A stretch of 64,000 bases of DNA, from the IMG/VR virus record IMGVR_UViG_3300035670_000089, positions 33,571-97,570 of that record; one strand, written 5' to 3'. Shown piece by piece: positions 24,437-63,613 of this stretch. Source of the DNA: a virus. Made by a program: the position numbers and the translations under genes. How positions within the stretch are numbered: position 1 is the first letter of the stretch; every line of letters starts with the position of its first letter. The notes below the pieces were generated by a model. It was not told the DNA's origin and did not search any database. It was given only the letters and a program-made list of their open reading frames with translations.

Positions 24437-25515
24437 GTTGAAGCCGCGGGGTAAGTAACTTTAATATCTCCGAGAACAATAACCTCATCAGAGAGAGAGA
24501 CAATATCCTCGGTGGGTTCGATAATCTTCACACTCCGCACCAAAGGAGAAATTAATCCCTCTACAGTCTGTATAGAAAAAGTATCCCCAATACCTAAACT
24601 TTTAACCGCGGCAGTAACTATTGCGTTCACCCTCTGCGTTAAATTATTCAGGTCGGCATCTCTCCCACTATAAGGGCGCATCTCTACGTGGACATCCACC
24701 ACCTTTCGCCTTGCTTGAATAATTACCGGAATAACTCCCATAGAGATATCCGGGCGGATATACGTTAGAATTTCTTCTCTTTGTCTATCTGTATAATTCT
24801 GTTCGGAGTCTAACCAAATCTCTACAACACCGGGAATAGATGTCCGGACATATACCCGCTCCACCAGAGGGTACTGTAGAAGTTTCGCTTCAATCGTACT
24901 TTGAGTAGAGGAAGAAGACCTAGAGAGATATGCTATTAATCTATTCCGGTAGGATAAGTCGGGCTCGACATCTCTCCCCCCGATTAAGTCTCCATAATAC
25001 CTGTCGGTATAATTACTCCCAACAATAACCTGAGTATCCGGAAAGTCTGGAGAGAATAACTTTGTACCCGCGGGTAAATTATGTTCCGCGCCGGGGTTTA
25101 AAGATACTACCGGGATTACTGTATTAAGAAAGGGGTATACTGTGACGACGCCGCTGTTTACAGTGTAGAACTCCAAGCCGTTTTCCAGATATACCAGAGA
25201 GGTCAATTGTGGAATCTGAATATTCTGCTCGAAAGACCGCATCATTACAAAACCAGTAGCAACCTGAGCGCCTTCTCGAACGAGAAAACTAGAACCTATC
25301 CGGTCTAGATACTCCCCGGTAGCCGTCAATATACTAGTATTAGCTTGAGACTCAATTAAACGGTAATCTTGTTGAGCTGCGATAACAGAGGAAGCGCGGG
25401 ATAGAGTATACGCCAGGGAGCCTTCTATTCTATCGACAACCAGTCCGCTTCCAGATTGGATAAGAGCGGAAAAGTAATCCTGTTGTATCTCGTCTACACT
25501 TCTTGGACTTAACAT
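24418..25515 (-). CDS. Baseplate J-like wedge protein
   Basis: TATGEYLDRIG, ATGFV, PGAEHNLPAG, GGRDVEPDLSYRNR, PGVVEIW: classic Baseplate_J motifs. Confidence 0.92.
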   Translation of the reverse strand: MLSPRSVDEIQQDYFSALIQSGSGLVVDRIEGSLAYTLSRASSVIAAQQDYRLIESQANTSILTATGEYLDRIGSSFLVREGAQVATGFVMMRSFEQNIQIPQLTSLVYLENGLEFYTVNSGVVTVYPFLNTVIPVVSLNPGAEHNLPAGTKLFSPDFPDTQVIVGSNYTDRYYGDLIGGRDVEPDLSYRNRLIAYLSRSSSSTQSTIEAKLLQYPLVERVYVRTSIPGVVEIWLDSEQNYTDRQREEILTYIRPDISMGVIPVIIQARRKVVDVHVEMRPYSGRDADLNNLTQRVNAIVTAAVKSLGIGDTFSIQTVEGLISPLVRSVKIIEPTEDIVSLSDEVIVLGDIKVTYPAASTWYQNI

Positions 25516-45189: not shown

Positions 45190-46356
45190 TTAGAGAAGTT
45201 GAAACGAAGGATTACCGCCCCGCGCCTCGATAATTTTGTTGTTGCGCTCAATAATTTGAGAGTAGAACTCAGGTAGCTCTACTTCAGTAGATCCTTTGCG
45301 CCCTTCATCACTCGACCCTTGAGGTTGAGCGAAGACATGCTTATAGTTCTCCGACAGTTGTTGATAGTCAGAGAAGAGCTTCTCTTCCGCAGCCGCCGTG
45401 AGAGTGCCAGACTTAATCATGTCGCTGAAGGTCTGTTTTGTACTTTCAGGAAGATTAAGAGCATTTAGTTTATTCAACTTAAGTTCGATAGCCCGAGAGT
45501 GCTCCGCTTCAATAAGAGAAGAGAACTGCTGCTTCATAGTGGAGAACTCTTTAGCAAGGTTGCTGAAGTCTTCAGCGAGTTTGTCGTACTGTTCGCGAGG
45601 AACAGTATCCGTAGGAGGAGTAGGCGGGCAGGAAGGAGGGCAAGAAGGAGCTGCGGGAGTAGACAACACTTCAGTAGGTGCTGCGGCTACATGGGTAGAG
45701 CTTTCTTGGCTTTGGGTATTAGTAGAAGTTTCAAACTCTGCAGTTTTCGTACTCATAGAAGTGTTTCCTATTTCGGGAGTTAGGTCAAAAGAAAAAACTG
45801 TAAGGGGGGTGCTAACGTCAGTTTCACCGGGACTATCGGAGAACTTCTCTACGGCTACTTCCAACCCATGGTTTTTAAAAGGTAAGAAGGGCCGATTCGT
45901 TAACGCAAGTCCTACTAAAAGAGTACCTATCTTTTCACCGCTTTGTCTGTCTCTAGCGTTTCTCAACACTTCAGCACTCGCGTATCGGTATCTCTTTTTC
46001 TCTACGTCCTCGAAAAGTTTCTCGTCGGTGGGAGAGTAATAAGCAAAGAGTACGTCTCCCTCTTGAGTTAGCTTATCAGGCCATCCTTCAGAAGGTTCCC
46101 CTTCTAGAACTTCGGAGGACTGAGGGTGCCCTAGGAATAACGGAGGGTCAAAGCCGGCTTTACCTTCATTAAAGTTTTCAACAATGTCGTCAAAATCTTG
46201 TTGAGTAAAAGAGACCTTGCCGTATACAGGATGGGACCATTCTCCCAAAGGAGCAACAGGAACCTTCAAGTACTGTTCTCCCGTCTGACCTTGGATGACG
46301 GATAGAAGTTCTAAATCGGTTCCAGTTATATTTGCTTCTAACTGAATGTAATCCAT
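45190..46356 (-). CDS. Prohead protease-scaffold (Mu gpI-like)
   Basis: APLGEWSHP, LFLGH, EGW, YRYASAE, LVGLALTNRPFL, followed by a low-complexity and coiled-coil scaffold. Confidence 0.9.
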   Translation of the reverse strand: MDYIQLEANITGTDLELLSVIQGQTGEQYLKVPVAPLGEWSHPVYGKVSFTQQDFDDIVENFNEGKAGFDPPLFLGHPQSSEVLEGEPSEGWPDKLTQEGDVLFAYYSPTDEKLFEDVEKKRYRYASAEVLRNARDRQSGEKIGTLLVGLALTNRPFLPFKNHGLEVAVEKFSDSPGETDVSTPLTVFSFDLTPEIGNTSMSTKTAEFETSTNTQSQESSTHVAAAPTEVLSTPAAPSCPPSCPPTPPTDTVPREQYDKLAEDFSNLAKEFSTMKQQFSSLIEAEHSRAIELKLNKLNALNLPESTKQTFSDMIKSGTLTAAAEEKLFSDYQQLSENYKHVFAQPQGSSDEGRKGSTEVELPEFYSQIIERNNKIIEARGGNPSFQLL

Positions 46357-48468: not shown

Positions 48469-49065
48469 ATGTCTAGCGATACCCTTAATGATATCCGGTG
48501 GGAACCTTACAGAAAACACTTCCAGTCCATACCTGTTTATTACTTTAACTCCCTAACCTATCCGGAAAGCTATGAACATTCCGAAATGATCCTTCGGGGG
48601 TTGGAGTTAGACATTAAGAATATAGAAGCGCAGTTCATAGAGCAAGAAACGGAACTACGCGGATTACCCGCATCACAACGGGAGATACAAGAAAGAGAAT
48701 ACGAGAAGTGGAAGACTAAAGCGCTCCGCGCGCAGAAGATGAAGTTTAACCAGATTCGTATTCTCGAAGCTTGGACTATGAACAACCAACCCGAATACGA
48801 AGAACGTATTCGCATTCTCGAAACTAATAACCTAAATCTACGTGTACGCGTAGAATCCCTAGAGAGTGAGTATCAGGAGTTACGGGAGTTACTCTACGCA
48901 CAACTCTCCGACGGCTTACAATCCGATGAGAATCTAGCTATACAGATACAAGCGGTGGAGAGTACGTTAACGGAGAGATTGGATGAATTGGAAGTAGACT
49001 ACACGGCGCTGAACACTAAAGTAGATACTCTAATCAATACTCCTACCGAGGGTACCGCCCCTTAG
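48469..49065 (+). CDS. Coiled-coil hypothetical protein
   Basis: 198 aa heptad-rich; converges on the portal gene with a 4-nt overlap. Confidence 0.65.
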   Translation: MSSDTLNDIRWEPYRKHFQSIPVYYFNSLTYPESYEHSEMILRGLELDIKNIEAQFIEQETELRGLPASQREIQEREYEKWKTKALRAQKMKFNQIRILEAWTMNNQPEYEERIRILETNNLNLRVRVESLESEYQELRELLYAQLSDGLQSDENLAIQIQAVESTLTERLDELEVDYTALNTKVDTLINTPTEGTAP

Positions 49066-50528
49066 GTTCTCTTAGGTTGTTTCTTCGATATCTGTTTAGA
49101 CTTATTCCCTGTGGAACGCCCCGGACTACCTGAACCTTTAGGGCCAACATCCCCTTCCCGAGGTTGTTTCTTCCGAGGTTCGATAAGAATCTCCTCGATG
49201 AATTTCATGTCGTCTTCGTCTCTTACCCGAGTACCCAATCTCAACATCTGCATAATCTTCGTGTAGTCTTCATCATTCCTCGGGTTCAGTACCGCAGACT
49301 CTACCAACCCTTTAATCATCTGCATGGTGGCTACTCTATCTTCCGAACGGTCGGAGTAGACGCGAGAGAAGGTAGGAGGAATACTAGCCGCGGCGCGATT
49401 AAAGTTCCACTGTTGTAAAGGAATGAATATCTTGCGGATTAAGTTCGATAAAAGCGCTTGCCGCTCTAACTCAATAGAATTCGTAAACAGCTCTATCTGT
49501 CGCTCTTGTGCTACTTCCTGCTCCCTCCCATCCATCACCGCCATGGATGTCAACAAGAAGGACGGGATAATATGCTTTATAGATTGGTGGTCCGCATATT
49601 CAATAGCTTTAACGAAAAGATCACCCACCGGGTCTTGAATAGCCTCCGATCCCACCTCAGGTTCCGTGCCCTGTTGCTGATACGGAAGAAAGATAACTTC
49701 GGGGATACCCTCAGTTTCATCAAACTGTTCCTTAATCAACTGCAGCGTCGTAATATAGTTCTCTTCTCCAGTAGACGGGTCAACCCGTACCTCTTGTGTA
49801 GGGAACGAGGGCATCTTAACCCAAAGAACTCGGTTCCCTAGTTTATAGAGTGAAGCGGACATCATATCGATTAGAGCTTCTTTAAGCCGCGTCCATTTAT
49901 ACGAAGGGGCGATTAATGACCTACCGTAGTAGTTCCCAAAATCACTCTCATTCGTTAAATGCACTAACTTCCATAAGTCTAACTGCTTCTCCTTTTGATA
50001 AAAACCACTGCTTAACTGCCATATCCCCGAACGATGATACCCGTCCGGCGTCTCCTTACCCTGCACTAATCTTCCTTTCTTGTCAGTGTAGATAATGATA
50101 GACTTAGGGTGATAAGTTATTAAATCTTGAAGAAAGAGTTTACCGTTAGAGAAGTGGAAGAGAATTTCGGATACTGAGTTACCCGCCCAGTATTTTGTTT
50201 CATTCATCACCTCGAGGCAGTTATAGAAGGAGCGACCGTTCAAATCCTCCAACTGTTTCAGATTACGGTTATGAAACTCTGCGATTTCTTTATCGGGGTG
50301 TTGAATCTCACCGATAGTGCCTAGAAGCCATTGAGTTCTAGCGCGTAGAGCCGCTTTTATTGTGAGGTCTTGGCGCCACAGTCTTTCGTACAAGCGCATT
50401 TGCGCCAACAGGGGTCTATGTATCGTGTTGTAATACGAAAAAGACCCCTGTTGGTTAACGTAGGAACCCTGTTGTTTTAACTTCCCTCTTACTTGCCTAC
50501 CGTCTTTATACTTGATGTCAGTATTCAT
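49062..50528 (-). CDS. Portal protein (DUF935/Mu gp29-like)
   Basis: LYERLWRQDLTIKAALRAR, GNSVSEI, GNYYGRSLI...W, LIRKIFIPLQQWNF. Confidence 0.88.
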   Translation of the reverse strand: MNTDIKYKDGRQVRGKLKQQGSYVNQQGSFSYYNTIHRPLLAQMRLYERLWRQDLTIKAALRARTQWLLGTIGEIQHPDKEIAEFHNRNLKQLEDLNGRSFYNCLEVMNETKYWAGNSVSEILFHFSNGKLFLQDLITYHPKSIIIYTDKKGRLVQGKETPDGYHRSGIWQLSSGFYQKEKQLDLWKLVHLTNESDFGNYYGRSLIAPSYKWTRLKEALIDMMSASLYKLGNRVLWVKMPSFPTQEVRVDPSTGEENYITTLQLIKEQFDETEGIPEVIFLPYQQQGTEPEVGSEAIQDPVGDLFVKAIEYADHQSIKHIIPSFLLTSMAVMDGREQEVAQERQIELFTNSIELERQALLSNLIRKIFIPLQQWNFNRAAASIPPTFSRVYSDRSEDRVATMQMIKGLVESAVLNPRNDEDYTKIMQMLRLGTRVRDEDDMKFIEEILIEPRKKQPREGDVGPKGSGSPGRSTGNKSKQISKKQPKRT

Positions 50529-50553
50529 ATTTATTATCTATAAGTAAGATGTA

Positions 50554-51111
50554 CTACTTTAAAACACGGTCCAGGGGATTAGATTGTCGAAGATTCTCGA
50601 AACTGCGGTTAGCTTGCGAAGTATCCTGTTCCATCCGAAGTTTAGACAATTCTTCCTCACGTTCCTTACGTATACGCTCGTTTAACTGCTGCGCCTCTCT
50701 CTTTAGAGCCTCTTTTATCTCGTCGGGATAACCGAAGCGTTGGACAAAGGGGTCATGGGCCATACCAATCCACTCAGTTAAGTTGAGCTTCATTCTTGTA
50801 CAGACCTCCATATACCCCACAATGTCATACTTCATCGCCCAGTGCTTAGAAGCCTCAACTCTCTGGAGATGGTAGTTCGCTACCATATTATCCAGATCTT
50901 CTTGAGTATACTTCGCGTACCGGATCGCCGGGTAGTACTCAGGTAAATAATTAAATTTACCTAAGTTATCGGCATAAACGGAGATTATCCCTTGAGATAC
51001 CGTACCCAACAGATTATCTAAATATCTTCGGGGGCGGGAGTAGTGGATGTTTTTGGAGATGCACTTCTCGGCTTGGCGTTGACTGACGCTAAAGGCTTCC
51101 GAACGCGCCAT
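50554..51111 (-). CDS. Tail assembly chaperone -1 frameshift extension (gpT-like); predicted fusion about 413 aa
   Basis: Lies in the -1 frame of the upstream gene, with a G GGA AAG slippery heptamer at 51120-51114. Confidence 0.75.
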   Translation of the reverse strand: MARSEAFSVSQRQAEKCISKNIHYSRPRRYLDNLLGTVSQGIISVYADNLGKFNYLPEYYPAIRYAKYTQEDLDNMVANYHLQRVEASKHWAMKYDIVGYMEVCTRMKLNLTEWIGMAHDPFVQRFGYPDEIKEALKREAQQLNERIRKEREEELSKLRMEQDTSQANRSFENLRQSNPLDRVLK

Positions 51112-51794
51112 TCCTTTCCCAAATGGGTAGCATCTTTACGCTCGTTCATGCCGATCGAGAACATCGAGATGAACACCGCCGTCGCATACAATACATCCAA
51201 CAACTCTAATTCGTATACACGAGAGAGAATGTTAGGAGATTGATCCACCGGCTCCCCATTAACATGAGTAAGGCAACTAAGGAAAAGCATCTCTTCCCAA
51301 GCGCAGCCATTAACCCGGGTTGAAGTATAGTCCTTCGTAACTGAAATCTGTACCGCGGAGGACGGACGGTAGAACGTCAAGTCCGAAGAGTTACAGGGCA
51401 GCATATCCTTCAGAAGGGTATAAGTCATACCGTTGGGGTCAGCGTTATACAACGCATCCGCTAGAGCATCCGCTTCATCTTGGTCTTCTTGTCCAATAAA
51501 GAAGGCGGAGATGAACGTCCGCATAATATACTGCTTATCCTTTAGATCCACTGCGTTAAAGCGCTCAATAGCATCTTTAGGGTTACCCGAGATTTCATTA
51601 CCTGCCCCGTCCCGAATACACAGAGCGCAAAGAAATTCTTCCATAGTATACCCAGGGCCCTGCGGATTATCGCGAGTTTCTCCTGGATACAGTTTTAAAG
51701 CGGTGCTGTAATCCTTGTACGTAGGCTTGTAAATGTTAACAGAATAACCGCCAACAAGTTTCTCTTTGGGTATAGTTACAATCCGATTTGACAT
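51018..51794 (-). CDS. Tail assembly chaperone (gpG-like), internally duplicated
   Basis: Two similar halves (YKPT...MEEFLCALCI...DLKD and YRPS...WEEMLFLSCL...ELLD) plus the slippery site. Confidence 0.72.
   Translation of the reverse strand: MSNRIVTIPKEKLVGGYSVNIYKPTYKDYSTALKLYPGETRDNPQGPGYTMEEFLCALCIRDGAGNEISGNPKDAIERFNAVDLKDKQYIMRTFISAFFIGQEDQDEADALADALYNADPNGMTYTLLKDMLPCNSSDLTFYRPSSAVQISVTKDYTSTRVNGCAWEEMLFLSCLTHVNGEPVDQSPNILSRVYELELLDVLYATAVFISMFSIGMNERKDATHLGKEWRVRKPLASVNAKPRSASPKTSTTPAPEDI
51114..51120 (-). promoter_or_regulatory. Programmed -1 ribosomal frameshift site GGGAAAG
   Basis: In frame as TTG GGA AAG, the same heptamer as the lambda G/T site; a -1 slip enters the 185-aa ORF. 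Confidence 0.8.
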
Positions 51795-51824: not shown

Positions 51825-54800
51825 TTGAAGGCTTTATATACACCCTCATCTCCTAGCTTACTGATGAATCCAGACGAAGAAGATCCAATTTATCCCCAAG
51901 ATGCAGATGAATCCGCTTATGACCCTAATGGTGAAGATCCGGATGAAGGTTTGTATGAAGATTCATACGAAGATGTTGCGGATACAGACGAACACCAACC
52001 AGAATATAGCCCTGACGATGACGACAACAATGACGGTGCCGAAGAAAGCGCTGACGATACCGATGAACGCACTCTAACTGAAAAAGAGTTCGACGAAAGT
52101 AGTATTGAAGAACAGTGGATAAAAGAGAGTATCGCCAAAGATACTATCGACAGTCCTGTCCAAAAGTTCTTTGAATCTTTCCTCGAAGCCACTGACGACC
52201 CGTATAAAACTCTAGCAGATACCACCCGCCGCGCGTTTGAAGGTATAACCTCCAAACGACTCTCTTCAGAAGATGTCAGCAACATCAATACGTTCGTTGA
52301 ACGTATCCACGGGGCGGGACGAGATTTAACTCAACCGGAAAGCGTCGACGGTAAACTACGCTTCGAGAGTTCGGTACGACTCAAGCACACCGGTATCCGG
52401 AACAAAATAGTAGAGAAGACTGGACTATACCGTCCACCCGTAGGCTTCGTCAGCAGAACTAACGAAAGAGATTGGGTCGCCTACCACGCTGCCAATCGCT
52501 CTCAAAACCTCGCGGAGGTTCGTTTCCAACTTCAAGAACGCACCTACGTCAATGAACTCTTAACCAGAGGAGAACTCCACGCTACAGGTAAAGCGGGCAC
52601 GACTAGAATCTTAACGCAGAAGTATAACGTAACCGAAGGTCAAAGTACTGCCGATGCCGCTGGAGCGGCCGGACTCTTCATAGGCAACGAGTTAACCCTC
52701 TCCGCCCTTAACGCCGCGGGGAAAGAAAGTGGGATAGAAGCAGACGGAGTCCGGATGGAAGGCAAACAATCCTTCCACCCTAAAGTCGGTTACTACTCAG
52801 ACAATAACGATAACGTCACCTCCGGTTTTATCAGTACTCAAAACATTACTAAGGAATTGACGAAGATGCGGTCTCAAGAGGAAACCGTATTCTTTCACGC
52901 CTACCGCGCGAATAAACCGGGAGGCGGTAAAGTCACCCAAATCCTCCAGGAAATACAAGCCGTCACTGAAGCTCTCTTTGAAGGAACAGAAGAGCAAAGA
53001 ACTGAGAACAAGACTGAAGATAGCGATACAATCCGCTCCAATATAGAAAGTAAGTTCGCCACAAAACTAAAAGGGCGCCAAAATAACGTCGTCAAACTTA
53101 ATAAAGAACTCCTCTTGGGCTTCAAGAGTATGCTCTCCGAGCAAACCTCTAAATCCAATACTAAAGTTATTGTCAGTTTACAGCTCTTAGACTCTAATCT
53201 CTTTCATGATTATTCCTTAACGAAAGACGAGACAGCGAGACTAAGTGAGTTAAGCGGCAGAGCGGACTTAAGTAAGGAGGAGATAGCAGAGAAGAAGGCT
53301 CTGGAGTTAAAGGGCGACTTTAAGACATATAGGGATGAAGTAGCAGGGCATTTAAAAGAATTGGCATCGCAAAAGAGACTGGCGATTGGGGTAACCGCGA
53401 CCAGTTTTGGGGAGAATCAAGGGTTATACCGTCTCCTCGATAAAAACCGTCGTGATGACCTTCGGATAGAACTAACAGGACTACTCAATATAAAACAAGA
53501 CCAACGAACTGAAGAGAACACAAGGCGTATACAGGAGATAAAGGGTGACTTAAACCTTAAGGGGACAGAGGAGCAGATAAAAGCGAAGGCGGAGAAACTT
53601 GAACTCAGCGCGGAATCCAAAGACTTATTGAAGACGTTTTTGGAGAATGATGTATTCCGAGTATTGGCGTCGCAATATATGCACTCCAAAAGCTACGCAG
53701 TCCTACAAATGGAGAGAGGTGTATACAGCGGTGTTGACGCTTTAGGGACAATGTCCTCAAACTTCTCGATGAACAGTTATGGAAGGAGCATCGAGGTAGG
53801 GATACAACTAGGCGCTGAGGATATGAAAGAGGCGGGATTCACTAAGGATGAACTCGACCAAATCATCTTGCACTACGGCTATGGGATAGATAAAGGAGGT
53901 AAAGAAAACCTTAAGGGTCTCTTAATGGAGAAAAAGGGGGATACAAGAAAGACCGAGGAGTTTATGCGGACGCTCCGCGCAATGGGGGGTAAAGAGACAA
54001 GAGTTAGAGATAAAGCGGGTACTGCTCCCTTTAGATTTTCCGCAAGGTACGCCGACAATAAACTAGTAGGGGTAGATATCGTCCTTAAGGACCAATTCTC
54101 TATGAGTTTGACTATAGGGAAGGACGCGGTATATATAAATAAAGGTAACCGTATAATAACCGGGGCTACTTGGTTAAACCAAAGTTCCAAAGATATAACG
54201 ATAGCGAGTGATATCGTCGACGGTAAAAAACGGATAGTAAGATCTGGGGAGTCCGCACAGATAAGCGCGACCCAGGTCGCCGCGGCATTAATCGCCACAA
54301 TGGGCCGAACCAGCGCCTACGAACGTAACCAACGTTCGATGTTCCTTACCCTCCGTAAACTCGTCAAAAAGAGCGAGATAGAAAAAAGAAAACTATTCCT
54401 ACTCGCGGGATTAAAACCAGAAGAAATTCCCGAACTGTTACGGAGACTAGACAAGGTTGTTAATACCGAAGACCTAGACTTCTTTAATAAACAACAAAAC
54501 GTGGACATGGTGGCTAAAGCCATCGGGCACGATAGAGAACTGTATGAGTATTACTCCACTCAGACCCGCGTCGCTAAATCTGAAGTGATTAATCACTTAC
54601 TAGACGTGTACATGCAGACGCATGAATTACCGTATAGTCATTCGCAGTTGAAGCATAAACAACCCGTGATGGGAATTACGGACAGAGTTCTACAAAATCT
54701 ATTCGCGCGCCCGATAAACGAGAAAGTAAATAAGGAAAAAGCAAAACAAGAACGAATAAAAAGGAATCCCTACGCAGAAGGAGATATTCACGACTCTCTA

Positions 54801-57800
54801 GATACACTAGAACTATCGTCGTATATACTCAGTGACGTTAACTTCTCCCACGCCACCAAACTAGTTGATAGTGAGGGTAGACCTTACGTTCGAGGGGTAG
54901 CCGACATTTCTCGCTTCAAGAGTATGGACTTACTTGAGGTGTTTGGGGGTATATACAAAGCGAATACCGGTAGTCCTACTCCAATGAGTTTGGAACTTAT
55001 GCGTGCATTGCCGGGACTGGATTTAATAACCGCTAAAGAGTACAAACAACGATTGGCGGACTTAGGTGTTGACAGTAAACTATCGAAGCGTTTATTAGAC
55101 TCCGCGTTTGCGGCGCATAAAGAAAGAGCGGAAGACGAAGTAGATGACGATGCTGTAATGCTCTACTTCCCGTATAACAAAACAGACCAAATATCCCAAC
55201 GTCTAAAAAACCTTAAATCAGTGCGCCCTTTTATTGTTGCGTCTAGAGCCTTCACCAGTAAAGTAAGGAGCTTCGGGTTCGACAATATATTAACCTCGGG
55301 CAAACTTAAACCTGAAGAGATTATGGGTACAACAGTGGCTCAATCTCTAACTCCAGAACAATACGAGACAATGTTGGAGATAAAGAAAGAGATCGATGCG
55401 GATACCACAATAGTAAATAAAGATAGAGAATTAGAGAGAAGGTTAAAAGCAATAGACCTTAACCCCGACTCTGATGTGCGAGGCTTTACTAATACTCCCA
55501 GACGAGTTTTGGCGAGTATGGGGATAAGTCAAATGTCGGACTTCTCCTTTGTGAACGCGAATATCGCTAATAAATCCTCGTATATGTTTACGCATAGGGT
55601 GCAAACTGCTTTAAGTTACGAGGAGTTGGGTATATCTCCGGCGGAATTTAGCGGGAAGGTAGCTAAAACCTTAAGAGCCGGTACAATGTTCGCGGCGCAG
55701 AAGACTGAACTACAAACAGATAACGCTCTCTACAAACACATTCGGGATGTTTTAAGGTACAACACAAGCATGACAAACGAAGAGCTTCGGAATAATCTGA
55801 AGACTCTATCGAAGAATAAAGCTTTTGAGTTTCTAAAGAATGTAGACGCAAAGATTACTAAGAATGGGTTACAAATATCGATTAAACAGGGGGTATACAG
55901 CACTGTCTCAGATACAGGACAGTGGGAACTTCGTAAGATAGGTGACATCGCCGCCGGAAGTTCATTCTTCCATATCGAAGGTCTAACCAAGTATAAATCT
56001 TCCGGAAAAGACTCTAAGAGAGAAGTCTATATACCGATTAAATCCCCAGCAGTATCTAGAAGGGCGAATAGAGGATTGAGTATATTGACCGAAGACGCCC
56101 GGGTTGTCGTAACTGACCTGCAACCCAACATGGTAACTCTTACCTACGAAGCCCTCAGCGTACAAGAACTAACAAGTGGTCTCCGCTCGTCCACCGCTAA
56201 AGGTCCGATGAGTATGCGGTCAAAAGACCTGTTCGACACTTTAAAAGAATGGAAAGAGCGCGAGGGTTCCGATAAGTATGGACAATACGATACCCAAATA
56301 GACAAGGGAGAAGTATTCTCTCTTATCGCCGCCGGTCAAATAAAGGGCTTCCTCTTCGAGGCGGGCTTCGGCTTCCTCCGTATGGGTAAAGAATCTAAGA
56401 TCTATCAAGAAGTCGCTAAACCCTCCTCTGGTCTAAAAATAGCCGAAGCCATCGCTATCACAATGCTCGACAATAAATCCAAGGATACTCGTATATCAAA
56501 TTTATTGTTAGACGCATATGACACAGGTGTTCTATCTAAAGAAGGCAAGAAACAGTTTGTAAGTTTCTTAAAAGGTATATCGGACAAACCGGATACCAAA
56601 ACAACAAAATTTAAAGAAAAAGACATAAAAACGTTATACACAAGTAAAACTCAATTAGACGCATCATTGAGTATCTTTGGTGGATTAATGTCACTTACGC
56701 AGTCTAGTAGATTAGACTCAGATAAAAGCGTAGAGCAGTCTTTAATAGACACCGTCGCCGCTGCCTTAACCGGGGACGAAGAAGCACAAAAACATCTGCA
56801 GGACCAAGCTTTAAAACTCTTTAATACTACTCTCGATAAAGGAGAGTACAGCACAAAGATTGGTAATGAATACTCCTTTAATGAGTCTAAAGGTAAATCG
56901 GCGGCACTACTCGCCTTCATGTTGAGTGTCGGGCAAGAGTTAATCCAAGATATAGATATAGAAGAAAGAACAGGTAACAGAGATAAAGGGTTATTCGAGT
57001 TAGGGTTTGGGAAAGAATCCACTGACGAATATATCGAGAACAAAAAGTATGAGAGAGCCGCGCGGGCACAAGCGATAAGTATGAACAAAACTTTGCCGCG
57101 GGCAAATGAGATATACACTGAGGAGAACCTACGGAAGATAAGAGAGAAGCGTCAAGAGTTAGATAGAGCAACCGACGAAGCGGAGCGTAAAAAACTAGAG
57201 ATTGAGTTAAAAGCCTTAAAAGCCGGAGAAGATAGTGCTAAGAAGGCGAAGTTAGATAACTTACTGTATGAGATGTATACCGCCGGGCAGACTAATCGGT
57301 TTATCACGCTACCCGTAAATATCGACATCAACAAAATTACGCCCGCCGTAGGGATGCAGGACTCTACCTCCCTAGAAGGCCACTACGCTCAATTCTTAAC
57401 GCAGAAACAATTAAACCTGTACACCTATACCGCTAGAGAGAAAGAAAAGGCGTCTACTCTCCAAGAGTCTCTAGTTGTTATCGGAGGCCTTCTAGAGGAA
57501 TACCGTGGCGGTCTACTAACCGCTCAGAGAGTTAGTAAGTTTTACAGTTTCCGTCGCTTCAATTCAGTATTATTAGCCGATACAAAAACACGAAATAAAT
57601 TACTTAAAGAGTATATCCCCGGGAAGGATAAGAAAGCGGAGCGGCGTAGACTAAACCAATACGCGGAAAGTCTATCTTTCTTAGCGCAGTTTAGTGAGTC
57701 CTATAGTCACTTCGCCTCGGAAACCATGCCCCTCATCTTTAAACGTCAGGAAGGGTTGGACAATGTCTACGATGTGGAATCCGCGTACGAGACGTTCTTT

Positions 57801-60800
57801 GAGTTTAGCCGTAAGGGTGAATCTCAAGAACTAAATACCCTATTGGAGAATATGCGCTCCATTGGGGAAATAGCTAGTGGAGACATAGGAAGACTACCCG
57901 GCGATAAAATGGAACAACGAGTCGAGACTATGTCGAGGGTCTACCTTGAGGACATGAGAGCAGGTTTAGAAGGCGAAAAAGGTTCCCTCTTAGGAAAACA
58001 AGTTAACTCCATCGTAGAGAGTATACTAGAAAACATAACAAAAAACCAAAAGAAAACCGGACAATCTATCCCGGATATCGCGGCACAATACGCCCAGTTT
58101 GAACAGGGTGCCCTCGAGATCGGTCAACGCCGTGAATTGTTCTTAAACCAACTAGTGCAAAACAAGGCTGCATTTAATAATCTAAGTAATGAAGAGAAGA
58201 GAGATTACATCCAACAACGGATTATCCGAAGTGCCCAACTTTTGAACGAGGAGACTGCCGCCACTGCTTCACAACAAGATATTCAAGAACGAAATGTACT
58301 CCTCAGTATTATCTCTAAAGAACTTTTGGATAAGTTCAAGAGTGCTATAACTATCGACCCAGGGACGGAGTATATCGAAGGACGGCATAAACTTAAGGAG
58401 TACACGCAAAACCGTATTGCTGAACTAGAAGCAAAATCTAATCCTTCCCGTAAGGACCGACAAGAGATTGAAAGACTAAAAACCCTAGAGAAGTCTATTA
58501 TCAATACGTTTACCTTAGAGCTACCTAAGTTAAGGTTTAGCGGGCACGATTATGACGAGGGTATAGAAGCCGGCGTAATAAAATTGAATTTCACTGGGGA
58601 GGAGACTCAAAAAGCAATGGTATTGGGGTTAGACCTTATAGACCGGATGAGTATGGTCTTCCAAGATTTCTCCCATCCTGCAATGGAGGCACAACAGACA
58701 TTAATCACAAGTATCGCCGCCGCTAAGGAATTAAAGGTCTTTGACGCCTTAGCTAAAGGCTTGACTAAGGACGAGGAAGTCTTCTTTACTTCAGAGCAAT
58801 TAAAGGCATACCAAGATTTAATGAAAGCATCCCAAGTTGCAGAGGCGACTACTTTAGAATTAGCGCGGAACCAAGAAGCAATCCGCCGCTCTATGGGAGA
58901 CCGTCTAACGATGAAAGGTTCCTCTTTCATCGCCACCTCTAGTTTCTTACTCGATAGTCTTGAAGTGGGTTTAGGTAAACGTGTCGATAGTATCCTAGGC
59001 GTAACCGCCGACTCAGGACTAAAAACCCTCCTTATACGGATGGGCGACGCTCTTAAAACTTCTTCCGGGAAAGAAGAACACCCCCTACTCCTAGAAACCT
59101 TTACCGATATCTTTAAAGGTATGGCTTCTATGTATATACAAGGGGATATAGACACTTCTAAGGTAGATTCTAGTAGGTTATCCAACCTACTACAGTTGTC
59201 CAACCTCAAGAAAGGTTCCGATTTAGCGGCGGACGTCATTGCCCTCTTGGACCTTCTTAAAAGAGAACACGATATGACTAAGTCCAATACAGCAAACCAA
59301 CGGAAAGGTAAAGACATACTACAGAATATAACTACCGCAGAGATTAAGGCGCACCAACAGTCTGAGAGCTTTAAGGCAGATAAGAAGAATAAACTTCTGG
59401 AGATGGAGAACTTAGCGTTTAAAGCTTTAGTCTTGGTAGCGAGACAAGGTGCGCCCAGTGGTGTAGGGGATACTTATCCGTTAGGGCACGAATATACAAG
59501 CGAACAGGAAGTAAACGCTAGAGCAAAGAAATACGGGACATTACTCCAATTAGACGAGCGCTCAAATAATACAATGATGCTAATCTCCGCGTTGGGTTTC
59601 CAATTTACTCAATTAGGGGACTACGACGGGGACTCTTTCCAAGCTGCAATGACCCGCCTTGCGGATACAACTTCCGCTTTGGGGCAACTTGCTATGAATA
59701 TAAACAAGGAGAGAAAACGCATCCCTGACCCTAAAACGAAATATCAAAATATAGGAGCTACCGCGGAAGAGCAGGATAAACTCGATGCCTACCACTTCTA
59801 TAAGATGCAGTCCGCCCAAAAAGCCATGAAGGACTACTCTCAAGACTTTGTGGATAAAGTAACCGCTATTCAAGAACTTCGCAAGAAAGTATTGGAACAG
59901 AGTGAGGGAGCAGTCAGAGACTATATCTCTAAATTTATGGGTATCGATAGAGACCTTATGGAAGGAACACCAGGCTCCACCGGCTCTATTCTTGATGAAG
60001 AACTCAATAGCCTCGTTAAACAGTACCGAGACACTTTAGATAATCTCTACTCCAATAGAGATATCATGCAGTCCTTTAGTGAAAGTCTGTCCGCAATGAC
60101 GACGAAGATATCGGATAAAGGAGGTACTGCTGCCATTACGGATACAAAACTAAAAGCGTTAGCGGATCAATATATAGAATACCTAGGGGCGGACGGCAAA
60201 AAATTCTTCGATGTCGACTTAGACCAGCAGAGACAACAACTAATAGCGTATAGTTCGATGTTGAGTAATTTCGAGGCAAGTCTACGCACTACGGCCAAGA
60301 TGTGGGATAAAGCCGCGGGCTCGAGTATCGACACAGAATCTTTTGCGGAGATCCAAGCTATTGTAGGCGACACCGGTACTGGACTTCTCGGTAAAACCTA
60401 CAACACTATTATTCCTCTCCTTTCGATGACGGCGGGACAACAAGCAATACATCGAGCGGCGGAAAAACAGGATAGTACAAGCGCTGAGATTCTCAAAACA
60501 GCTATCGAACAGAGAGAAGCCTCTTTGGATGTAGATGACGAGGACTATGAACTCAAACGAGATTTCTTAAGGGACTTAAAGACGAAGTATACCGGGCAGA
60601 CTAAACCAGAGCCAAATATGGCACTGTTCCAAGAACTCCAAGATAGAGTAGACGCCACCTTTGGGGTTCTGACGAATATACAACAATTCCTCCGAGACGC
60701 GGCATTAAAACCGAAGGAGAAAACTACAGTAAGTTTAATCGCGCAGGATTGGAGATTAAGCGGTGATTTAGCGAAGGAATTTAGTGATGTAGCGGATAGA

Positions 60801-63068
60801 CGAGGACTGCATAATATTCTTTCCGGCGTCGGTGACGATGAAAACCGCGCCAGAATCTTGGATGCCTTCATCGGTACCCAAGCGGGTGCAGTTATGAAGA
60901 GCGATCTAAACTTAAACTTAACGTCAGAGGAAGTCGCAGCTTTCCACGACAATAAATGGAAAGATATCGACACAAACGAGATTAGGGCCTTTGGAGTACT
61001 CGAGATAATGAACGAGTACCTAAGTGGAAGAAAGAGTGCGGAGGCCATGATGGAGGATGGTAAATACCGCGGCCTCTTTAGTCAACAAAAAGAAGCTTTG
61101 GCCGAAACAGGTAAACTTACCTCCGACTCTGAGATAGTCAGCGCGACCATTACAAAACTCCTCAGTAAGTTCCGGTCGCAGTTTGTTTTCGACAATGTAC
61201 TTGAAGGCGGAGAACCTAAGAATAAAGCGGCATTAGAATCTTTCTTTGGACGAATGAAGGAGAAGTATACCGACGAAGGTATAGAAGAACAAATAAAGGC
61301 GTACGAAGCAGAGTACGATGACCGACTAACCAAGGAGGGTATAGTCGGGAGTACAGCGGAAGAGATAGAAAGTATCGAAATGAGAAAACAGGAGAATGTA
61401 GATAAACTGAGAGAGAAGAAGAAAAAGATACAAGAGATTGTACAGAGAAAGGATATAAATGCCGAAACTGCTGTAAGAGAGTTAGTCGGACTAAATATAC
61501 AATCCCAGACGGAAGTTCTCACTCCCGTATTAGAAAAACTAAGGGAAATCAATATCCTCATAGGTAAGGCTAAAGAGGGGACGGCCCCCTCAGGCACTGG
61601 GGCCTTCGAGAATATACAAGAACAGATGTTGGCGCTGACCAATACGTTATCGCGGGGGAAAATAACTGGAGGAGCTTTAGCGGGAATAAGTGCTAAACTC
61701 GCTAGTTTAGTTAGTGGAGACGTAAACCAAAATGAGTTTATGGCGCTGTTGGCTCTTGGAGGAGATATGGGTTTACCGGGTGCGCTAGAGCTTATACAAC
61801 AGCACCAGGAACAACCCGATAAGATTACCCAGAAAGAGAAACTACGCCAGGAAGAAGTAAAAGCAAAAGAACTGCAAAAGGTTATGACCGAGACCGTAGA
61901 CCAAGACGGGACGAAGATAACCTTTGCGGAGTATAACGTCTTAAATAACACTGAGACGGCACATGTGGAAGAACTGCAAAAAGGAGTCCGGAGTGCATCT
62001 GCGCTACAGAATGAATTGATGGGGCAACAAGAGGAGTTATCGGATTTAGACCGTGCTACGATAGACCGTGCCGAGAAGGAGAAGTCAAAACTTAAAGATA
62101 AGATAAACCGTATTCAAGATAAGAGTCTCTCTCTAGAAGAGAGACAAAATATGATACAAGATGAGTTGTGGGAAGACCCCGCGGCAGATGTATCCGAATG
62201 GATAAATAAAGAGTTATACACCAAAGCGAGAAAGGTTAAGTCCGAAGAACGCAAAAAGTATGTAGACGCCGCAAACCGTGAAGTAGGTAAGGAATATCGT
62301 AAAGGACATATGATGAGTGTCCTTGTCCTACCTCTGATATTCGGCGCCGCTCAAGGCGAAGTAAACTTTGAGAACGCTATTAATACTGGCTGGGATGTAT
62401 TACAAGGAGTAGTAACCTCAGTAAATTATAAAGAGTCTAGTATAAGAAAACAGTTGTTCTCTGCGGATGGAAGTACATTAGCGGAGGACCCGACGTTAGC
62501 GGAGAAGAGGGCGCAAAAATTGGCGTATCAATTCCAACTCGCCCGCGTCCGTCAATTCCAGAGAGAGAGTAAAAATCCTTTAGAGGGGAGTTTACAAGCA
62601 TTAGCATTCGAGAGTGTATACATGGCGGCAGGTGCCGGGACTAGTGAAATTGCCTCTCGAGTATTTAAAAAGAGCGGGTCAGTCGCGCAAACCATAACGG
62701 AAGGTGTCGGAAACCTATTTGGTATGGCAGTCGCGGGGGCCTTAACAAAAAGACCTATACCCGGAACAGAAGCTACTCAAGATTATGCTTGGGCTGCAAC
62801 CGTTCGACAACTCCGCAATATTAATGAATATATGATTCAAGTTAGCGCCCGCGCTCTCCAAGAGATTGTACAGGGCGATGGGGAAACACACGCCTACCAC
62901 GATGAAAACGGAGAGGATATAACTGCCCTCCTTAATGAAAGCGATTTCCAAATGCCGGAGGATAATACAAGCTTATCAGCGATAGAGAGACAATTGATGT
63001 TAGGTGAGAGTAATATGGGAGCAGAAGAACCCATATACATAAACAATAATGCCGAAGTGACGGTTTAA
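51825..63068 (+). CDS. Giant single-chain two-barrel RNA polymerase with N-terminal tandem PLD/HKD domains (candidate virion RNAP); likely start ATG 51864
   Basis: Catalytic GDYDGD (D2599/2601/2603; 59619-59633) preceded by VLVARQGAP and RRSMGDRLTMKGSSFI (beta'-type barrel). QMSDFSFVN, GLRSSTAKG and GQIKG (beta-type barrel). PLD motifs FHPK...ISTQN and MHSK...SSNFS...IEVG. Confidence 0.8.
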   Translation: MKALYTPSSPSLLMNPDEEDPIYPQDADESAYDPNGEDPDEGLYEDSYEDVADTDEHQPEYSPDDDDNNDGAEESADDTDERTLTEKEFDESSIEEQWIKESIAKDTIDSPVQKFFESFLEATDDPYKTLADTTRRAFEGITSKRLSSEDVSNINTFVERIHGAGRDLTQPESVDGKLRFESSVRLKHTGIRNKIVEKTGLYRPPVGFVSRTNERDWVAYHAANRSQNLAEVRFQLQERTYVNELLTRGELHATGKAGTTRILTQKYNVTEGQSTADAAGAAGLFIGNELTLSALNAAGKESGIEADGVRMEGKQSFHPKVGYYSDNNDNVTSGFISTQNITKELTKMRSQEETVFFHAYRANKPGGGKVTQILQEIQAVTEALFEGTEEQRTENKTEDSDTIRSNIESKFATKLKGRQNNVVKLNKELLLGFKSMLSEQTSKSNTKVIVSLQLLDSNLFHDYSLTKDETARLSELSGRADLSKEEIAEKKALELKGDFKTYRDEVAGHLKELASQKRLAIGVTATSFGENQGLYRLLDKNRRDDLRIELTGLLNIKQDQRTEENTRRIQEIKGDLNLKGTEEQIKAKAEKLELSAESKDLLKTFLENDVFRVLASQYMHSKSYAVLQMERGVYSGVDALGTMSSNFSMNSYGRSIEVGIQLGAEDMKEAGFTKDELDQIILHYGYGIDKGGKENLKGLLMEKKGDTRKTEEFMRTLRAMGGKETRVRDKAGTAPFRFSARYADNKLVGVDIVLKDQFSMSLTIGKDAVYINKGNRIITGATWLNQSSKDITIASDIVDGKKRIVRSGESAQISATQVAAALIATMGRTSAYERNQRSMFLTLRKLVKKSEIEKRKLFLLAGLKPEEIPELLRRLDKVVNTEDLDFFNKQQNVDMVAKAIGHDRELYEYYSTQTRVAKSEVINHLLDVYMQTHELPYSHSQLKHKQPVMGITDRVLQNLFARPINEKVNKEKAKQERIKRNPYAEGDIHDSLDTLELSSYILSDVNFSHATKLVDSEGRPYVRGVADISRFKSMDLLEVFGGIYKANTGSPTPMSLELMRALPGLDLITAKEYKQRLADLGVDSKLSKRLLDSAFAAHKERAEDEVDDDAVMLYFPYNKTDQISQRLKNLKSVRPFIVASRAFTSKVRSFGFDNILTSGKLKPEEIMGTTVAQSLTPEQYETMLEIKKEIDADTTIVNKDRELERRLKAIDLNPDSDVRGFTNTPRRVLASMGISQMSDFSFVNANIANKSSYMFTHRVQTALSYEELGISPAEFSGKVAKTLRAGTMFAAQKTELQTDNALYKHIRDVLRYNTSMTNEELRNNLKTLSKNKAFEFLKNVDAKITKNGLQISIKQGVYSTVSDTGQWELRKIGDIAAGSSFFHIEGLTKYKSSGKDSKREVYIPIKSPAVSRRANRGLSILTEDARVVVTDLQPNMVTLTYEALSVQELTSGLRSSTAKGPMSMRSKDLFDTLKEWKEREGSDKYGQYDTQIDKGEVFSLIAAGQIKGFLFEAGFGFLRMGKESKIYQEVAKPSSGLKIAEAIAITMLDNKSKDTRISNLLLDAYDTGVLSKEGKKQFVSFLKGISDKPDTKTTKFKEKDIKTLYTSKTQLDASLSIFGGLMSLTQSSRLDSDKSVEQSLIDTVAAALTGDEEAQKHLQDQALKLFNTTLDKGEYSTKIGNEYSFNESKGKSAALLAFMLSVGQELIQDIDIEERTGNRDKGLFELGFGKESTDEYIENKKYERAARAQAISMNKTLPRANEIYTEENLRKIREKRQELDRATDEAERKKLEIELKALKAGEDSAKKAKLDNLLYEMYTAGQTNRFITLPVNIDINKITPAVGMQDSTSLEGHYAQFLTQKQLNLYTYTAREKEKASTLQESLVVIGGLLEEYRGGLLTAQRVSKFYSFRRFNSVLLADTKTRNKLLKEYIPGKDKKAERRRLNQYAESLSFLAQFSESYSHFASETMPLIFKRQEGLDNVYDVESAYETFFEFSRKGESQELNTLLENMRSIGEIASGDIGRLPGDKMEQRVETMSRVYLEDMRAGLEGEKGSLLGKQVNSIVESILENITKNQKKTGQSIPDIAAQYAQFEQGALEIGQRRELFLNQLVQNKAAFNNLSNEEKRDYIQQRIIRSAQLLNEETAATASQQDIQERNVLLSIISKELLDKFKSAITIDPGTEYIEGRHKLKEYTQNRIAELEAKSNPSRKDRQEIERLKTLEKSIINTFTLELPKLRFSGHDYDEGIEAGVIKLNFTGEETQKAMVLGLDLIDRMSMVFQDFSHPAMEAQQTLITSIAAAKELKVFDALAKGLTKDEEVFFTSEQLKAYQDLMKASQVAEATTLELARNQEAIRRSMGDRLTMKGSSFIATSSFLLDSLEVGLGKRVDSILGVTADSGLKTLLIRMGDALKTSSGKEEHPLLLETFTDIFKGMASMYIQGDIDTSKVDSSRLSNLLQLSNLKKGSDLAADVIALLDLLKREHDMTKSNTANQRKGKDILQNITTAEIKAHQQSESFKADKKNKLLEMENLAFKALVLVARQGAPSGVGDTYPLGHEYTSEQEVNARAKKYGTLLQLDERSNNTMMLISALGFQFTQLGDYDGDSFQAAMTRLADTTSALGQLAMNINKERKRIPDPKTKYQNIGATAEEQDKLDAYHFYKMQSAQKAMKDYSQDFVDKVTAIQELRKKVLEQSEGAVRDYISKFMGIDRDLMEGTPGSTGSILDEELNSLVKQYRDTLDNLYSNRDIMQSFSESLSAMTTKISDKGGTAAITDTKLKALADQYIEYLGADGKKFFDVDLDQQRQQLIAYSSMLSNFEASLRTTAKMWDKAAGSSIDTESFAEIQAIVGDTGTGLLGKTYNTIIPLLSMTAGQQAIHRAAEKQDSTSAEILKTAIEQREASLDVDDEDYELKRDFLRDLKTKYTGQTKPEPNMALFQELQDRVDATFGVLTNIQQFLRDAALKPKEKTTVSLIAQDWRLSGDLAKEFSDVADRRGLHNILSGVGDDENRARILDAFIGTQAGAVMKSDLNLNLTSEEVAAFHDNKWKDIDTNEIRAFGVLEIMNEYLSGRKSAEAMMEDGKYRGLFSQQKEALAETGKLTSDSEIVSATITKLLSKFRSQFVFDNVLEGGEPKNKAALESFFGRMKEKYTDEGIEEQIKAYEAEYDDRLTKEGIVGSTAEEIESIEMRKQENVDKLREKKKKIQEIVQRKDINAETAVRELVGLNIQSQTEVLTPVLEKLREINILIGKAKEGTAPSGTGAFENIQEQMLALTNTLSRGKITGGALAGISAKLASLVSGDVNQNEFMALLALGGDMGLPGALELIQQHQEQPDKITQKEKLRQEEVKAKELQKVMTETVDQDGTKITFAEYNVLNNTETAHVEELQKGVRSASALQNELMGQQEELSDLDRATIDRAEKEKSKLKDKINRIQDKSLSLEERQNMIQDELWEDPAADVSEWINKELYTKARKVKSEERKKYVDAANREVGKEYRKGHMMSVLVLPLIFGAAQGEVNFENAINTGWDVLQGVVTSVNYKESSIRKQLFSADGSTLAEDPTLAEKRAQKLAYQFQLARVRQFQRESKNPLEGSLQALAFESVYMAAGAGTSEIASRVFKKSGSVAQTITEGVGNLFGMAVAGALTKRPIPGTEATQDYAWAATVRQLRNINEYMIQVSARALQEIVQGDGETHAYHDENGEDITALLNESDFQMPEDNTSLSAIERQLMLGESNMGAEEPIYINNNAEVTV
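51835..51862 (-). promoter_or_regulatory. Candidate phage promoter AGTAAGCT-N14-TATATA
   Basis: In the divergent gap upstream of the chaperone gene; matches 18002-18029. Confidence 0.35.
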
Positions 63069-63073
63069 TAAAA

Positions 63074-63613
63074 ATGCCTATTTATGGATACCTAAGAGAA
63101 CCTATATACCGTCGTGTGGAGAAGTACCTAAATCTGAATACACCGATGTTATTCGGCTTTGGGCAATCCACTCCTTGGGAAATAGAAGCTACACCTCCAA
63201 ATGTCCCTCTAGATACTACCGATATCCCCGGCCTCGTCGGCTATGTCCCGATTACTACCCGTAAAGCTGTAATTAAGACATCGGTACTTGAACCCGGCGG
63301 GTTTGAATTGCAGGGCCTCTTTTATAAAACCGTCAATATTAACGATATCCGCGATATCCGCGCTAATCGTATAAATAGACTTTACTTAAAAGGCTACCTC
63401 TATCACGAGGACATCTACACCAAAGTCTGTACTTTTCGATCCTTATCTGTACATATAGATGTAGACCTAAATAGATGTGTAACCGGACCGTATCGATTCT
63501 TAGGTCCTCAAAACGTAGACCGCAGCGCAGCAATGTATTTAGAACATTTCCCTCCCTTTACTGTACAACGCTCAATCCGTCAGTCTTTTGAATTAGTTGT
63601 CTTAATGGATTAA
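63074..63613 (+). CDS. Baseplate wedge protein (T4 gp8-like)
   Basis: FGFGQSTPW...TPP...LVGY...RLYL...FRSL...QSFELVV pattern of myovirus baseplate proteins. Confidence 0.6.
   Translation: MPIYGYLREPIYRRVEKYLNLNTPMLFGFGQSTPWEIEATPPNVPLDTTDIPGLVGYVPITTRKAVIKTSVLEPGGFELQGLFYKTVNINDIRDIRANRINRLYLKGYLYHEDIYTKVCTFRSLSVHIDVDLNRCVTGPYRFLGPQNVDRSAAMYLEHFPPFTVQRSIRQSFELVVLMD

Follow-up and report, generated by a model that had tools for sequence, protein, structure and literature searches.

Virion-delivered RNA polymerases (RNAPs) are known from N4-like, crAss-like, phiKZ-like and P23-45-like phages, and each of these discoveries has reshaped the view of early infection. Here we analyze a 64,000-nucleotide stretch of viral DNA (the window), which constitutes the last 64 kb of the 97,570-bp IMG/VR record IMGVR_UViG_3300035670_000089 (66% complete according to CheckV). 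A giant open reading frame (ORF) at 51825-63068 (+) encodes a protein that we consider rather more likely than not to be a virion-delivered single-chain RNAP of a previously uncharacterised family. If true, this would be a fifth and structurally distinct solution, found in contractile-tailed phages of ~150-216 kb. Our literature search returned no paper naming this giant family a polymerase; the coverage of the search was incomplete, so this is no proof of novelty.

Among the described systems, the virion RNAP of N4 (~3,500 aa) is similar to the giant protein in size, in the central position of its polymerase and in its flanks, which serve ejection and encapsidation; once injected, it transcribes the early genes (PMC5512222, PMC13434306). 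However, it is a T7-like right-hand polymerase of unrelated fold, and N4 is a podovirus. P23-45 gp96 (5,002 aa) is a virion RNAP fused to a tape measure (PMC10770324). It was found through a search of virion proteins for DxDxD and bears no detectable sequence similarity to cellular RNAP beyond its DFDGD loop (PMC10770324). What it shares with the giant protein is a giant single chain encoded in the virion module, both barrels (the beta' barrel being putative in our case) and the DxDGD loop. The polymerase of gp96 occupies the N-terminal 1,200-1,540 residues, its phage is a siphovirus, it belongs to the clade that joins phage and plasmid enzymes with RNA-dependent RNA polymerases (RdRPs), and it has a paralogous non-virion counterpart, gp64. 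In the giant protein, by contrast, the polymerase-like part is central and bears a flap-like insertion, and the gene lies beside the portal of a phage with a contractile tail and has no paralogue. The string GDYDGD is absent from the supplements of PMC10770324.

Two further single chains, gp66 of the crAss-like phage phi14:2 and QDE-1 of N. crassa, contain both barrels (bioRxiv 10.1101/2020.03.07.982082; PMC2919709). QDE-1 presents DYDGD and an R-x4-K basic pair, as the giant protein does, and gp66 is packaged in the virion, with most of its mass lacking a known homologue. In gp66 and QDE-1, a connector of ~140 residues links the barrels and the beta-type barrel lacks a flap, whereas the giant protein has a gap of ~850 residues and a flap-like insertion. 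The giant protein also resembles the beta lineage of multisubunit RNAPs (phiKZ/AR9 and killer-plasmid enzymes) in its predicted fold, which matches beta/Rpb2 over 210-340 residues, its flap-like insertion and a switch-2-like motif before DxDGD. Unlike these enzymes of two to five subunits, it is one chain with a PLD-like head and a linker of ~500 residues, and since it lacks cysteine it has none of the beta' zinc sites. The protein falls outside the P23-45 gp96, crAss-like gp66 and N4 families, as it presents no detectable sequence relation to them, a different architecture and a different kind of phage. By analogy, it would work most like the virion two-barrel polymerases gp96 and gp66, and its size and layout resemble those of the unrelated N4 enzyme.

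Conserved residues in the giant protein family

A first-pass annotation, made from the letters alone, had described an unannotated 3,747-aa polymerase at this locus. The ORF is real and every motif that it quoted lies where it was placed. From a TTG at 51825, the frame stays open over 3,747 codons, and the public gene call starts 13 codons further in, at an ATG at 51864 (3,734 aa); which of the two is the true start is uncertain. This public call carries neither a name nor a Pfam domain, and the gene is unannotated in that sense only. The 3,747 residues include no cysteine, and no hydrophobic segment of 19 residues was found anywhere in the protein.

The aspartate loop reads LGDYDGDS from position 59613 (+), where DYDGD corresponds to residues 2599-2603 (DNA 59619), and the slightly longer LGDYDGDSFQ (59613..59642) is the proposed Mg-binding loop with D2599/D2601/D2603. 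Upstream on the same strand, VLVARQGAP (residue 2536, DNA 59430) contains R2540-Q-G-A-P2544 (59442..59456), a candidate counterpart of Rpb1 R446-x-P448 with the spacing R-x3-P. RRSMGDRL (residue 2354, DNA 58884) is the start of a switch-2-like motif, RRSMGDRLTMKGSSFIA (58884..58937), in which R2354 and G2365 are invariant. Earlier in the chain, RVLASMGISQ (residue 1227) belongs to the motif carrying D1239, GLRSSTAKG (residue 1452) holds R1454 and K1459, and GQIK (residue 1504) holds K1507. Calculated from composition, ~0.07 occurrences of DxDGD are expected by chance in a protein of this size, and the DYDGD motif taken alone proves nothing.

We then searched 1.84 billion representative proteins exhaustively with phmmer, using residues 1451-2650 as the query. 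This yielded 28 homologues and nothing else, nearly all of them 3,000-5,400 aa long and 25-37% identical. The full-length alignment of the 29 sequences retains only ~150 of 3,747 columns in at least 22 sequences, and all six motif groups that had been picked from one sequence correspond to invariant or near-invariant columns across the 28 homologues. That six groups should all land on so small a set of conserved columns is far beyond chance. Indeed, D1239 is invariant (24 of 24 sequences), as are R1454 (26/26), K1459-G-P (25/25), K1507 (25/25), R2354 (27/27) and R2540 (28/28), and P2544 is kept in 27 of 28. Every full-length homologue presents LGD[YFN]DGD[STA][FY], three members carrying GDNDGD. 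The basic pair follows the pattern G-x-R-x4-6-K-G-P, with an R-to-K spacing ranging from x4 to x6. R2540 lies 59 residues before D2599; R2566 (23/26) presents the beta'-like spacing of 33 residues but without a proline. The conservation of the three aspartates (D2599/D2601/D2603) and of the lysines (K1459, K1507) among homologues, which the first-pass annotation had set as a check, is therefore what the alignment displays.

Eight residues are invariant in all two-barrel RNAPs (Ruprich-Robert and Thuriaux, PMC2919709): the three aspartates of DxDxD (Rpb1 D479/D481/D483), a fourth aspartate (Rpb2 D837, QDE-1 D709), the basic pair (Rpb2 K979/K987, QDE-1 R738/K743) and the R-x-P that precedes the aspartate loop (Rpb1 R446/P448). 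We propose that all eight are matched, in the same order, by D1239, then R1454 and K1459, then R2540 and P2544, and finally D2599/D2601/D2603. The proposed catalytic residues are thus both invariant in the family and arranged as expected for a single-chain two-barrel RNAP. Under this proposal, D1239 would be the counterpart of Rpb2 D837 and of E. coli beta D814, as judged by position and topology rather than by residue-level superposition, and R1454 and K1459 would be those of Rpb2 K979/K987. K1507, in the motif PSQIK (compare PSRMN of beta), is possibly the counterpart of Rpb2 R1020.

The family extends to a cultured phage. The protein gp080 of Ma-LMM01, a 162-kb myovirus of Microcystis aeruginosa, is recorded as a hypothetical protein of 3,562 aa (BAF36171.1) and matches the hidden Markov model of the family with an E-value of 1.5e-48. 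Its loop reads NLGDFDGDTF, and its gene lies divergently beside the Mu-like portal gp083. The giant protein and gp080 are members of the same family with distant sequences, and the papers that we searched give no function for gp080.

Predicted folds of the two polymerase-like regions

An AlphaFold2 model of residues 1000-1920, with the family homologues as alignment, reached a mean predicted local distance difference test score (pLDDT) of 76.3 and a predicted template modelling score of 0.74. The confident part of the model, residues ~1056-1845 (54990..57359, +), matches second-largest RNAP subunits only, and we refer to it as the RNAP beta/Rpb2-like module. When the model was compared with the PDB using Foldseek, the top 50 matches were all RNAP beta/Rpb2 chains (E-values from 7e-3, probability up to 0.99). 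In a VIA-wide comparison with 48,161 chains, just 11 chains reached Z>=5, and the top nine (Z 6.3-7.7, 210-338 residues aligned) were all second-largest RNAP subunits: those of plant Pol IV, plastid-encoded polymerase (PEP), Pol I, vaccinia virus, African swine fever virus (ASFV), Xanthomonas (beta), Pol III and the non-virion RNAPs (nvRNAPs) of AR9 and phiKZ. Among Foldseek's best 1,000 chains, the pdb_via comparison found 401 with Z>=5, the top 50 again being all beta/Rpb2 chains with Z up to 8.0. It is because these lists are so uniform, and not because the Z-scores are high, that the fold evidence carries weight. QDE-1 and gp66 were not among the structural matches listed, which were filled by beta/Rpb2 chains, and a similarity to them may exist nonetheless.

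The residues of interest occupy consistent places in this model. The first half of the beta-type barrel (residues 1220-1252, 55482..55580) is a strand-loop-strand with invariant D1239 and N1244, in which D1239 sits in the loop between the two strands, directly before an insertion. The second half (residues 1447-1520, 56163..56384) carries the invariant R1454, K1459-G-P and K1507; a strand-loop-strand that follows the insertion directly holds R1454 and K1459, and a strand-loop-helix holds K1507. This modelled placement is that of the beta-barrel topology, at the sites of the ED motif, the basic loop and the funnel arginine. The insertion itself spans 194 residues (1253-1446, 55581..56162) and aligns with isolated beta-flap domains, weakly in terms of score (3tbi_B and 3woe_A, Z 4.1-4.2, root-mean-square deviation 3.0-3.2 over 83-84 residues). 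Overall, the prediction, which is of good confidence, gives the region with D1239, R1454, K1459 and K1507 a fold like that of the core of RNAP beta/Rpb2, composed of a double-psi beta-barrel plus flap.

The flap bears on the lineage of the protein. Cellular, killer-plasmid and phiKZ-type enzymes share a flap insertion (SBHM, sandwich-barrel hybrid motif), which RdRPs and their YonO-like relatives lack (Iyer, Aravind and colleagues, PMC7824862). The flap-like insertion therefore places the giant protein nearer to the multisubunit-RNAP lineage than to the YonO/crAss/RdRP branch. The first-pass annotation had favoured this latter branch from the R-x4-KG spacing and the QxK after it; with a modelled flap-like insertion of ~190 residues and an R-to-K spacing of x4 to x6 across family members, that assignment is probably wrong.

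A search of BFVD with the beta-like module returned first the family's own member from Ma-LMM01, gp080 (E-value 1.1e-11), and most remaining matches were RNAP subunits of nucleocytoplasmic large DNA viruses, poxviruses, nudiviruses and phiKZ-like phages. The second-best match was A0A172Q0S6 (E-value 3.8e-3, probability 0.99), an uncharacterised protein of 798 aa from the jumbo Acinetobacter phage vB_AbaM_ME3, possibly a further polymerase subunit that has gone unrecognised. Where the module ends and the confidence of the model drops, we also observed a near-invariant block G-M-x3-T-x-L-E-x2-Y (residues 1843-1851, DNA ~57351-57377).

A mostly helical linker of ~500 residues (~1850-2340) separates this module from the beta'-like region. 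There, the alignment of homologues delimits a helical insertion in the presumed beta'-type barrel (residues 2400-2520, 59022..59384), whose length varies from almost none to ~700 extra residues and which may be the cause of the failed fold prediction of this half. Comparisons of local profiles placed RRSMGDRLTMKGSSFIA best on beta' RQNLLGKRVDYSGRSVI, a weak match (P 0.15-0.19), and the DYDGD block best on beta' NADFDGD (P 0.004-0.045). A collinearity with beta', including regions E and F, had appeared from hand-chosen blocks and was rejected, since unbiased windows lost the order. Alignment of the beta-like blocks with E. coli beta alone using hhalign was uninformative. The residue pattern nevertheless suggests that the two barrels would meet at the DYDGD loop. 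Of the structural expectation set out by the first-pass annotation, namely two barrels meeting at this loop, the beta-like half is borne out by the matches of its predicted fold to RNAP beta/Rpb2, and the beta'-like half, with a pLDDT below 50 and no match, is not.

Proposed virion delivery and competing explanations

The arrangement of genes around the giant ORF is kept in relatives as distant as 20% identity, which are viral contigs of 150-216 kb: the portal (-), a gene of ~190 aa (-), a gene of ~255 aa (-), the giant gene (+) and a baseplate-like gene of ~175 aa. Neither a canonical beta' domain, nor a T7-like RNAP, nor a paralogue of the giant protein was found in the contig and four relatives (three of them 94-96% complete), the search for the T7-like enzyme having been run without a positive control. 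A reading of the giant protein as the tape measure was rejected: its gene neighbours the portal, is divergent from the head genes, is ~12 kb away from that of the sheath and does not lie between the tube/chaperone and hub genes.

The lack of cysteine is a property of the whole family. Cysteine is absent from all 28 homologues, over more than 100,000 family residues (for Ma-LMM01 gp080 the count is one). In the window's 26 other ORFs, cysteine makes up 0.61% on average, and at this background rate the probability of finding none in 3,747 residues is ~1e-10. This absence fits a protein under selection for passage in an unfolded state, first along the tail and then across the oxidising periplasm.

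Zero cysteine was also observed in a second giant ORF of the window (2-17347, -), which runs off its start and encodes at least 5,782 aa. A pairwise BLAST of the N-terminal parts of the two giant ORFs reached an E-value of 0.2 only, which leaves paralogy unestablished. Lack of cysteine may generally mark proteins that are ejected through tail and periplasm and, seen here over more than 100,000 residues, it may assist in recognising such phage proteins.

Ma-LMM01, called in 2018 the sole lytic phage in culture that infects the bloom-forming, toxin-producing M. aeruginosa, offers expression data for the family. Reads of gp080 are missing at 0-1 h, and the gene falls into the middle subclass B5 together with structural genes, whereas the early genes gp054-gp063 are transcribed by 0-1 h (PMC5780444 supplement). 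As gp080 is silent at 0-1 h, any early action would require its product to arrive with the particle. The phage has been described as lacking its own polymerase, and the origin of its three temporal classes was left unexplained (PMC5780444). According to its published transcriptome, infection hardly affects host transcription, and the three classes have similar host-type promoters. Beside the early block gp054-gp063 and before the gene for the 1,673-aa gp064, we observed a 42-bp unit repeated six and a half times in an array (AB231700, 43271-43551), possibly an early-promoter or polymerase-loading region.

From these lines of evidence, we propose that the central ~2,000 residues may form a single-chain two-barrel RNAP of the cellular type. 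Residues ~1056-1845 would be beta/Rpb2-like, with a flap-split barrel supplying D1239, R1454, K1459 and K1507; after the linker, residues ~2340-2640 would form a beta'-like barrel with a helical insertion, supplying R2354, R2540..P2544 and the Mg-binding D2599-x-D2601-G-D2603. The protein would be made middle-to-late and packed in the virion; ejected together with the DNA, probably in an unfolded or elongated state, it would go on to transcribe the first phage genes independently of the host polymerase. Packaging, ejection or passage through the envelope could be the task of the PLD-like pair at the N-terminus and of the long helical parts. We consider it quite probable that the protein contains a functional two-barrel polymerase core. 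Virion delivery is suggested by the conserved position beside the Mu-like portal, the absence of cysteine and the middle-class expression of gp080. What the analysis establishes is how the family is conserved, which beta-like fold is predicted, the synteny and the lack of cysteine; the beta'-barrel fold, the apposition of the barrels, RNA synthesis, the location in the virion and the role in early transcription are inferred. More tentatively, and with somewhat less than even confidence, we suggest that Ma-LMM01-like and related freshwater myoviruses inject a cysteine-free polymerase of 3,000-5,400 residues with fused flap-bearing beta-type and beta'-type modules. This enzyme would form a deep, unseen branch of the cellular-type RNAP lineage and allow a host-independent start of transcription, and its PLD-type head would aid passage through the envelope.

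Several observations weigh against a virion-delivered polymerase. The structural Z-scores of 6-8 are "middling" by the scale of the search tool itself. The model of residues 2150-3100 has a pLDDT of 60, falling below 50 and being mostly helical around R2354, R2540 and DYDGD, and Foldseek and VIA searches with this model returned generic matches to helical hairpins and no polymerase. The spacing of R2540..P2544 is R-x3-P and not the universal R-x-P, and the ~850 residues between the barrels exceed by far the separation known from characterised single-chain enzymes. Pfam and PHROGs scans with the complete protein gave no match, and profiles of the beta'-like and beta-like regions recovered coiled-coil or chance matches only from PDB sequences and Pfam. 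Against a profile of 80 proteobacterial beta' fragments, hhalign aligned the beta'-like region at DYDGD only, and unbiased windows of 60 residues followed no common order with beta' (Spearman -0.18, longest increasing run 4/10). Finally, sigma70-like promoters precede the genes of all Ma-LMM01 classes, and host RNAP with SigA has been proposed to act throughout (PMC5780444).

Other sequence searches were similarly silent. The PDB sequence search with the whole giant protein gave a single chance match of 49 residues. The Pfam RNAP domains (RNA_pol_Rpb1_2, Rpb2_6) returned nothing at E<=10 in the protein, its domains or the genomes. No match at an E-value of 1e-3 was found when residues 1100-2800 were compared with 50,697 phage records using tblastn, and a word-based search for homologues recovered the giant protein itself only. 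No protein-language-model neighbour scored above 0.9; the best named ones were tape-measure-like clusters, which we treat as reflecting helical composition.

It is possible, as a minor alternative, that the protein is a true two-barrel RNAP that is not injected. It would then be made in mid-phase and transcribe the late virion genes, as the nvRNAPs of phiKZ, AR9 and P23-45 do. The transcript of gp080, being of the middle class, does precede the late class of gp082, gp085-087 and gp091, and Ma-LMM01 has no late sigma factor, yet a distinct late promoter motif (PMC5780444). An enzyme that stays in the cell nonetheless agrees less well than a packaged and ejected one with the absence of cysteine throughout the family and in the other giant ORF of the window, with a length of 3,000-5,400 aa that includes long helical parts, and with the fixed place of the gene between portal and baseplate genes. 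In addition, there is no second, smaller paralogue.

We find it unlikely that the protein is an ejected or internal virion megaprotein that reuses a polymerase-derived module, for instance to grip or thread DNA at ejection or to hydrolyse nucleotides, without synthesizing RNA. The residues for the two Mg ions, the nucleoside triphosphate and the RNA 3' end are strictly kept in sequences of 25-37% identity, and such strict upkeep is expected of a working active site and not of a scaffold. A module of this kind would agree with a beta'-type barrel that could not be modelled, a helical insertion of very variable length, the atypical R-x3-P and language-model neighbours that are tape-measure-like with scores below 0.9.

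A two-barrel enzyme of another chemistry, such as a PolD-like DNA polymerase, a primase or an RdRP, is very unlikely. The two-barrel superfamily does include PolD and RdRPs (PMC2919709, PMC10770324), and neither template nor sugar specificity can be read from the motifs described here. However, all structural matches listed are second subunits of DNA-dependent RNAPs, with no PolD or RdRP among them, and a flap-like insertion together with a switch-2-like motif are marks of DNA-dependent enzymes (PMC2919709, PMC7824862). Finally, we discount almost entirely a chance resemblance of motifs in a long helical protein that is no polymerase: the low but nonzero expectation of DxDGD and the failure of every sequence method to find a polymerase family would allow it, but no columns of the 29-sequence family are more conserved than the motifs, and an independent prediction of the fold of the other half returns RNAP beta subunits only.

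If the protein is indeed a virion-delivered polymerase, the published view that all three cyanophage gene classes depend on host RNAP with SigA would be wrong, and an injected polymerase serving a single early block of 5.8 kb would make the question of the temporal classes testable. Moreover, one chain in which a flap-bearing beta-type barrel is joined to a beta'-type loop, and which no sequence profile reaches, would inform the link between the two-subunit cellular enzyme and its single-chain relatives.

Protein termini and neighboring genes

Outside the polymerase-like regions, the giant protein presents several other features. Its first 150 residues (51825..52274) are strongly acidic (48 D+E against 11 K+R) and poorly conserved. 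They are followed by a pair of PLD/HKD-like motifs (52776..53795), H318-x-K320..Q339-N340 and H620-x-K622..S644-x-N646..E657, none of which varies among family members. The putative half-sites (HxK..(GS)xN) lie at H318/K320/N340 and H620/K622/S644/N646. The region has no Pfam match, but in UniProt the Ma-LMM01 homologue goes by the name of a PLD phosphodiesterase domain protein. Past the aspartate loop, strongly conserved blocks are found at residues 2733-2737 and at 60297..60716 (G2848..LLG..YN..P2864 and QQ..RD..LKPK at 2953-2964), and the C-terminal region (62262..63068) is conserved at P3503, R3574, E3596, E3626 and D3707.

The first-pass annotation had placed the giant gene upstream of and co-oriented with baseplate genes, in a phage with a Mu-like portal and protease and a contractile tail. 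Indeed, a gene of the baseplate-wedge-3/virion structural family (63074-63613, +; PF25691, E-value 9.4e-10) begins 6 bp past the stop of the giant gene. The Mu-like portal (49062-50528, -; PF06074), the head protease (45190-46356), the HK97-type major capsid protein (43806-45134), the tail sheath of the contractile tail (36419-39403) and a gp6-like baseplate wedge (24418-25515) were all identified in the window.

On the strand opposite to the giant gene, the portal is joined by a 185-aa gene and a 258-aa gene of the head module (49062..51794, -), an arrangement that recurs in the relatives. As listed, these two small genes (50554-51111 and 51018-51794, both -) share 94 bases, and neither matches a Pfam or PHROG family; in all relatives examined, the spot between the portal and the giant gene is occupied by genes of similar size. 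Only 30-70 bases separate the end of the 258-aa gene at 51794 from the two candidate starts of the giant gene at 51825 and 51864. With so short a gap between 51794 and 51864, any promoters of the two divergent units must extend into coding sequence or into one another. Finally, the large terminase (18041-20989, -; 982 aa, PHROG matches) contains an HNH-endonuclease-like segment at residues ~617-823, flanked by terminase-like parts according to PHROG, which may be an inserted homing-endonuclease or intein-like element.

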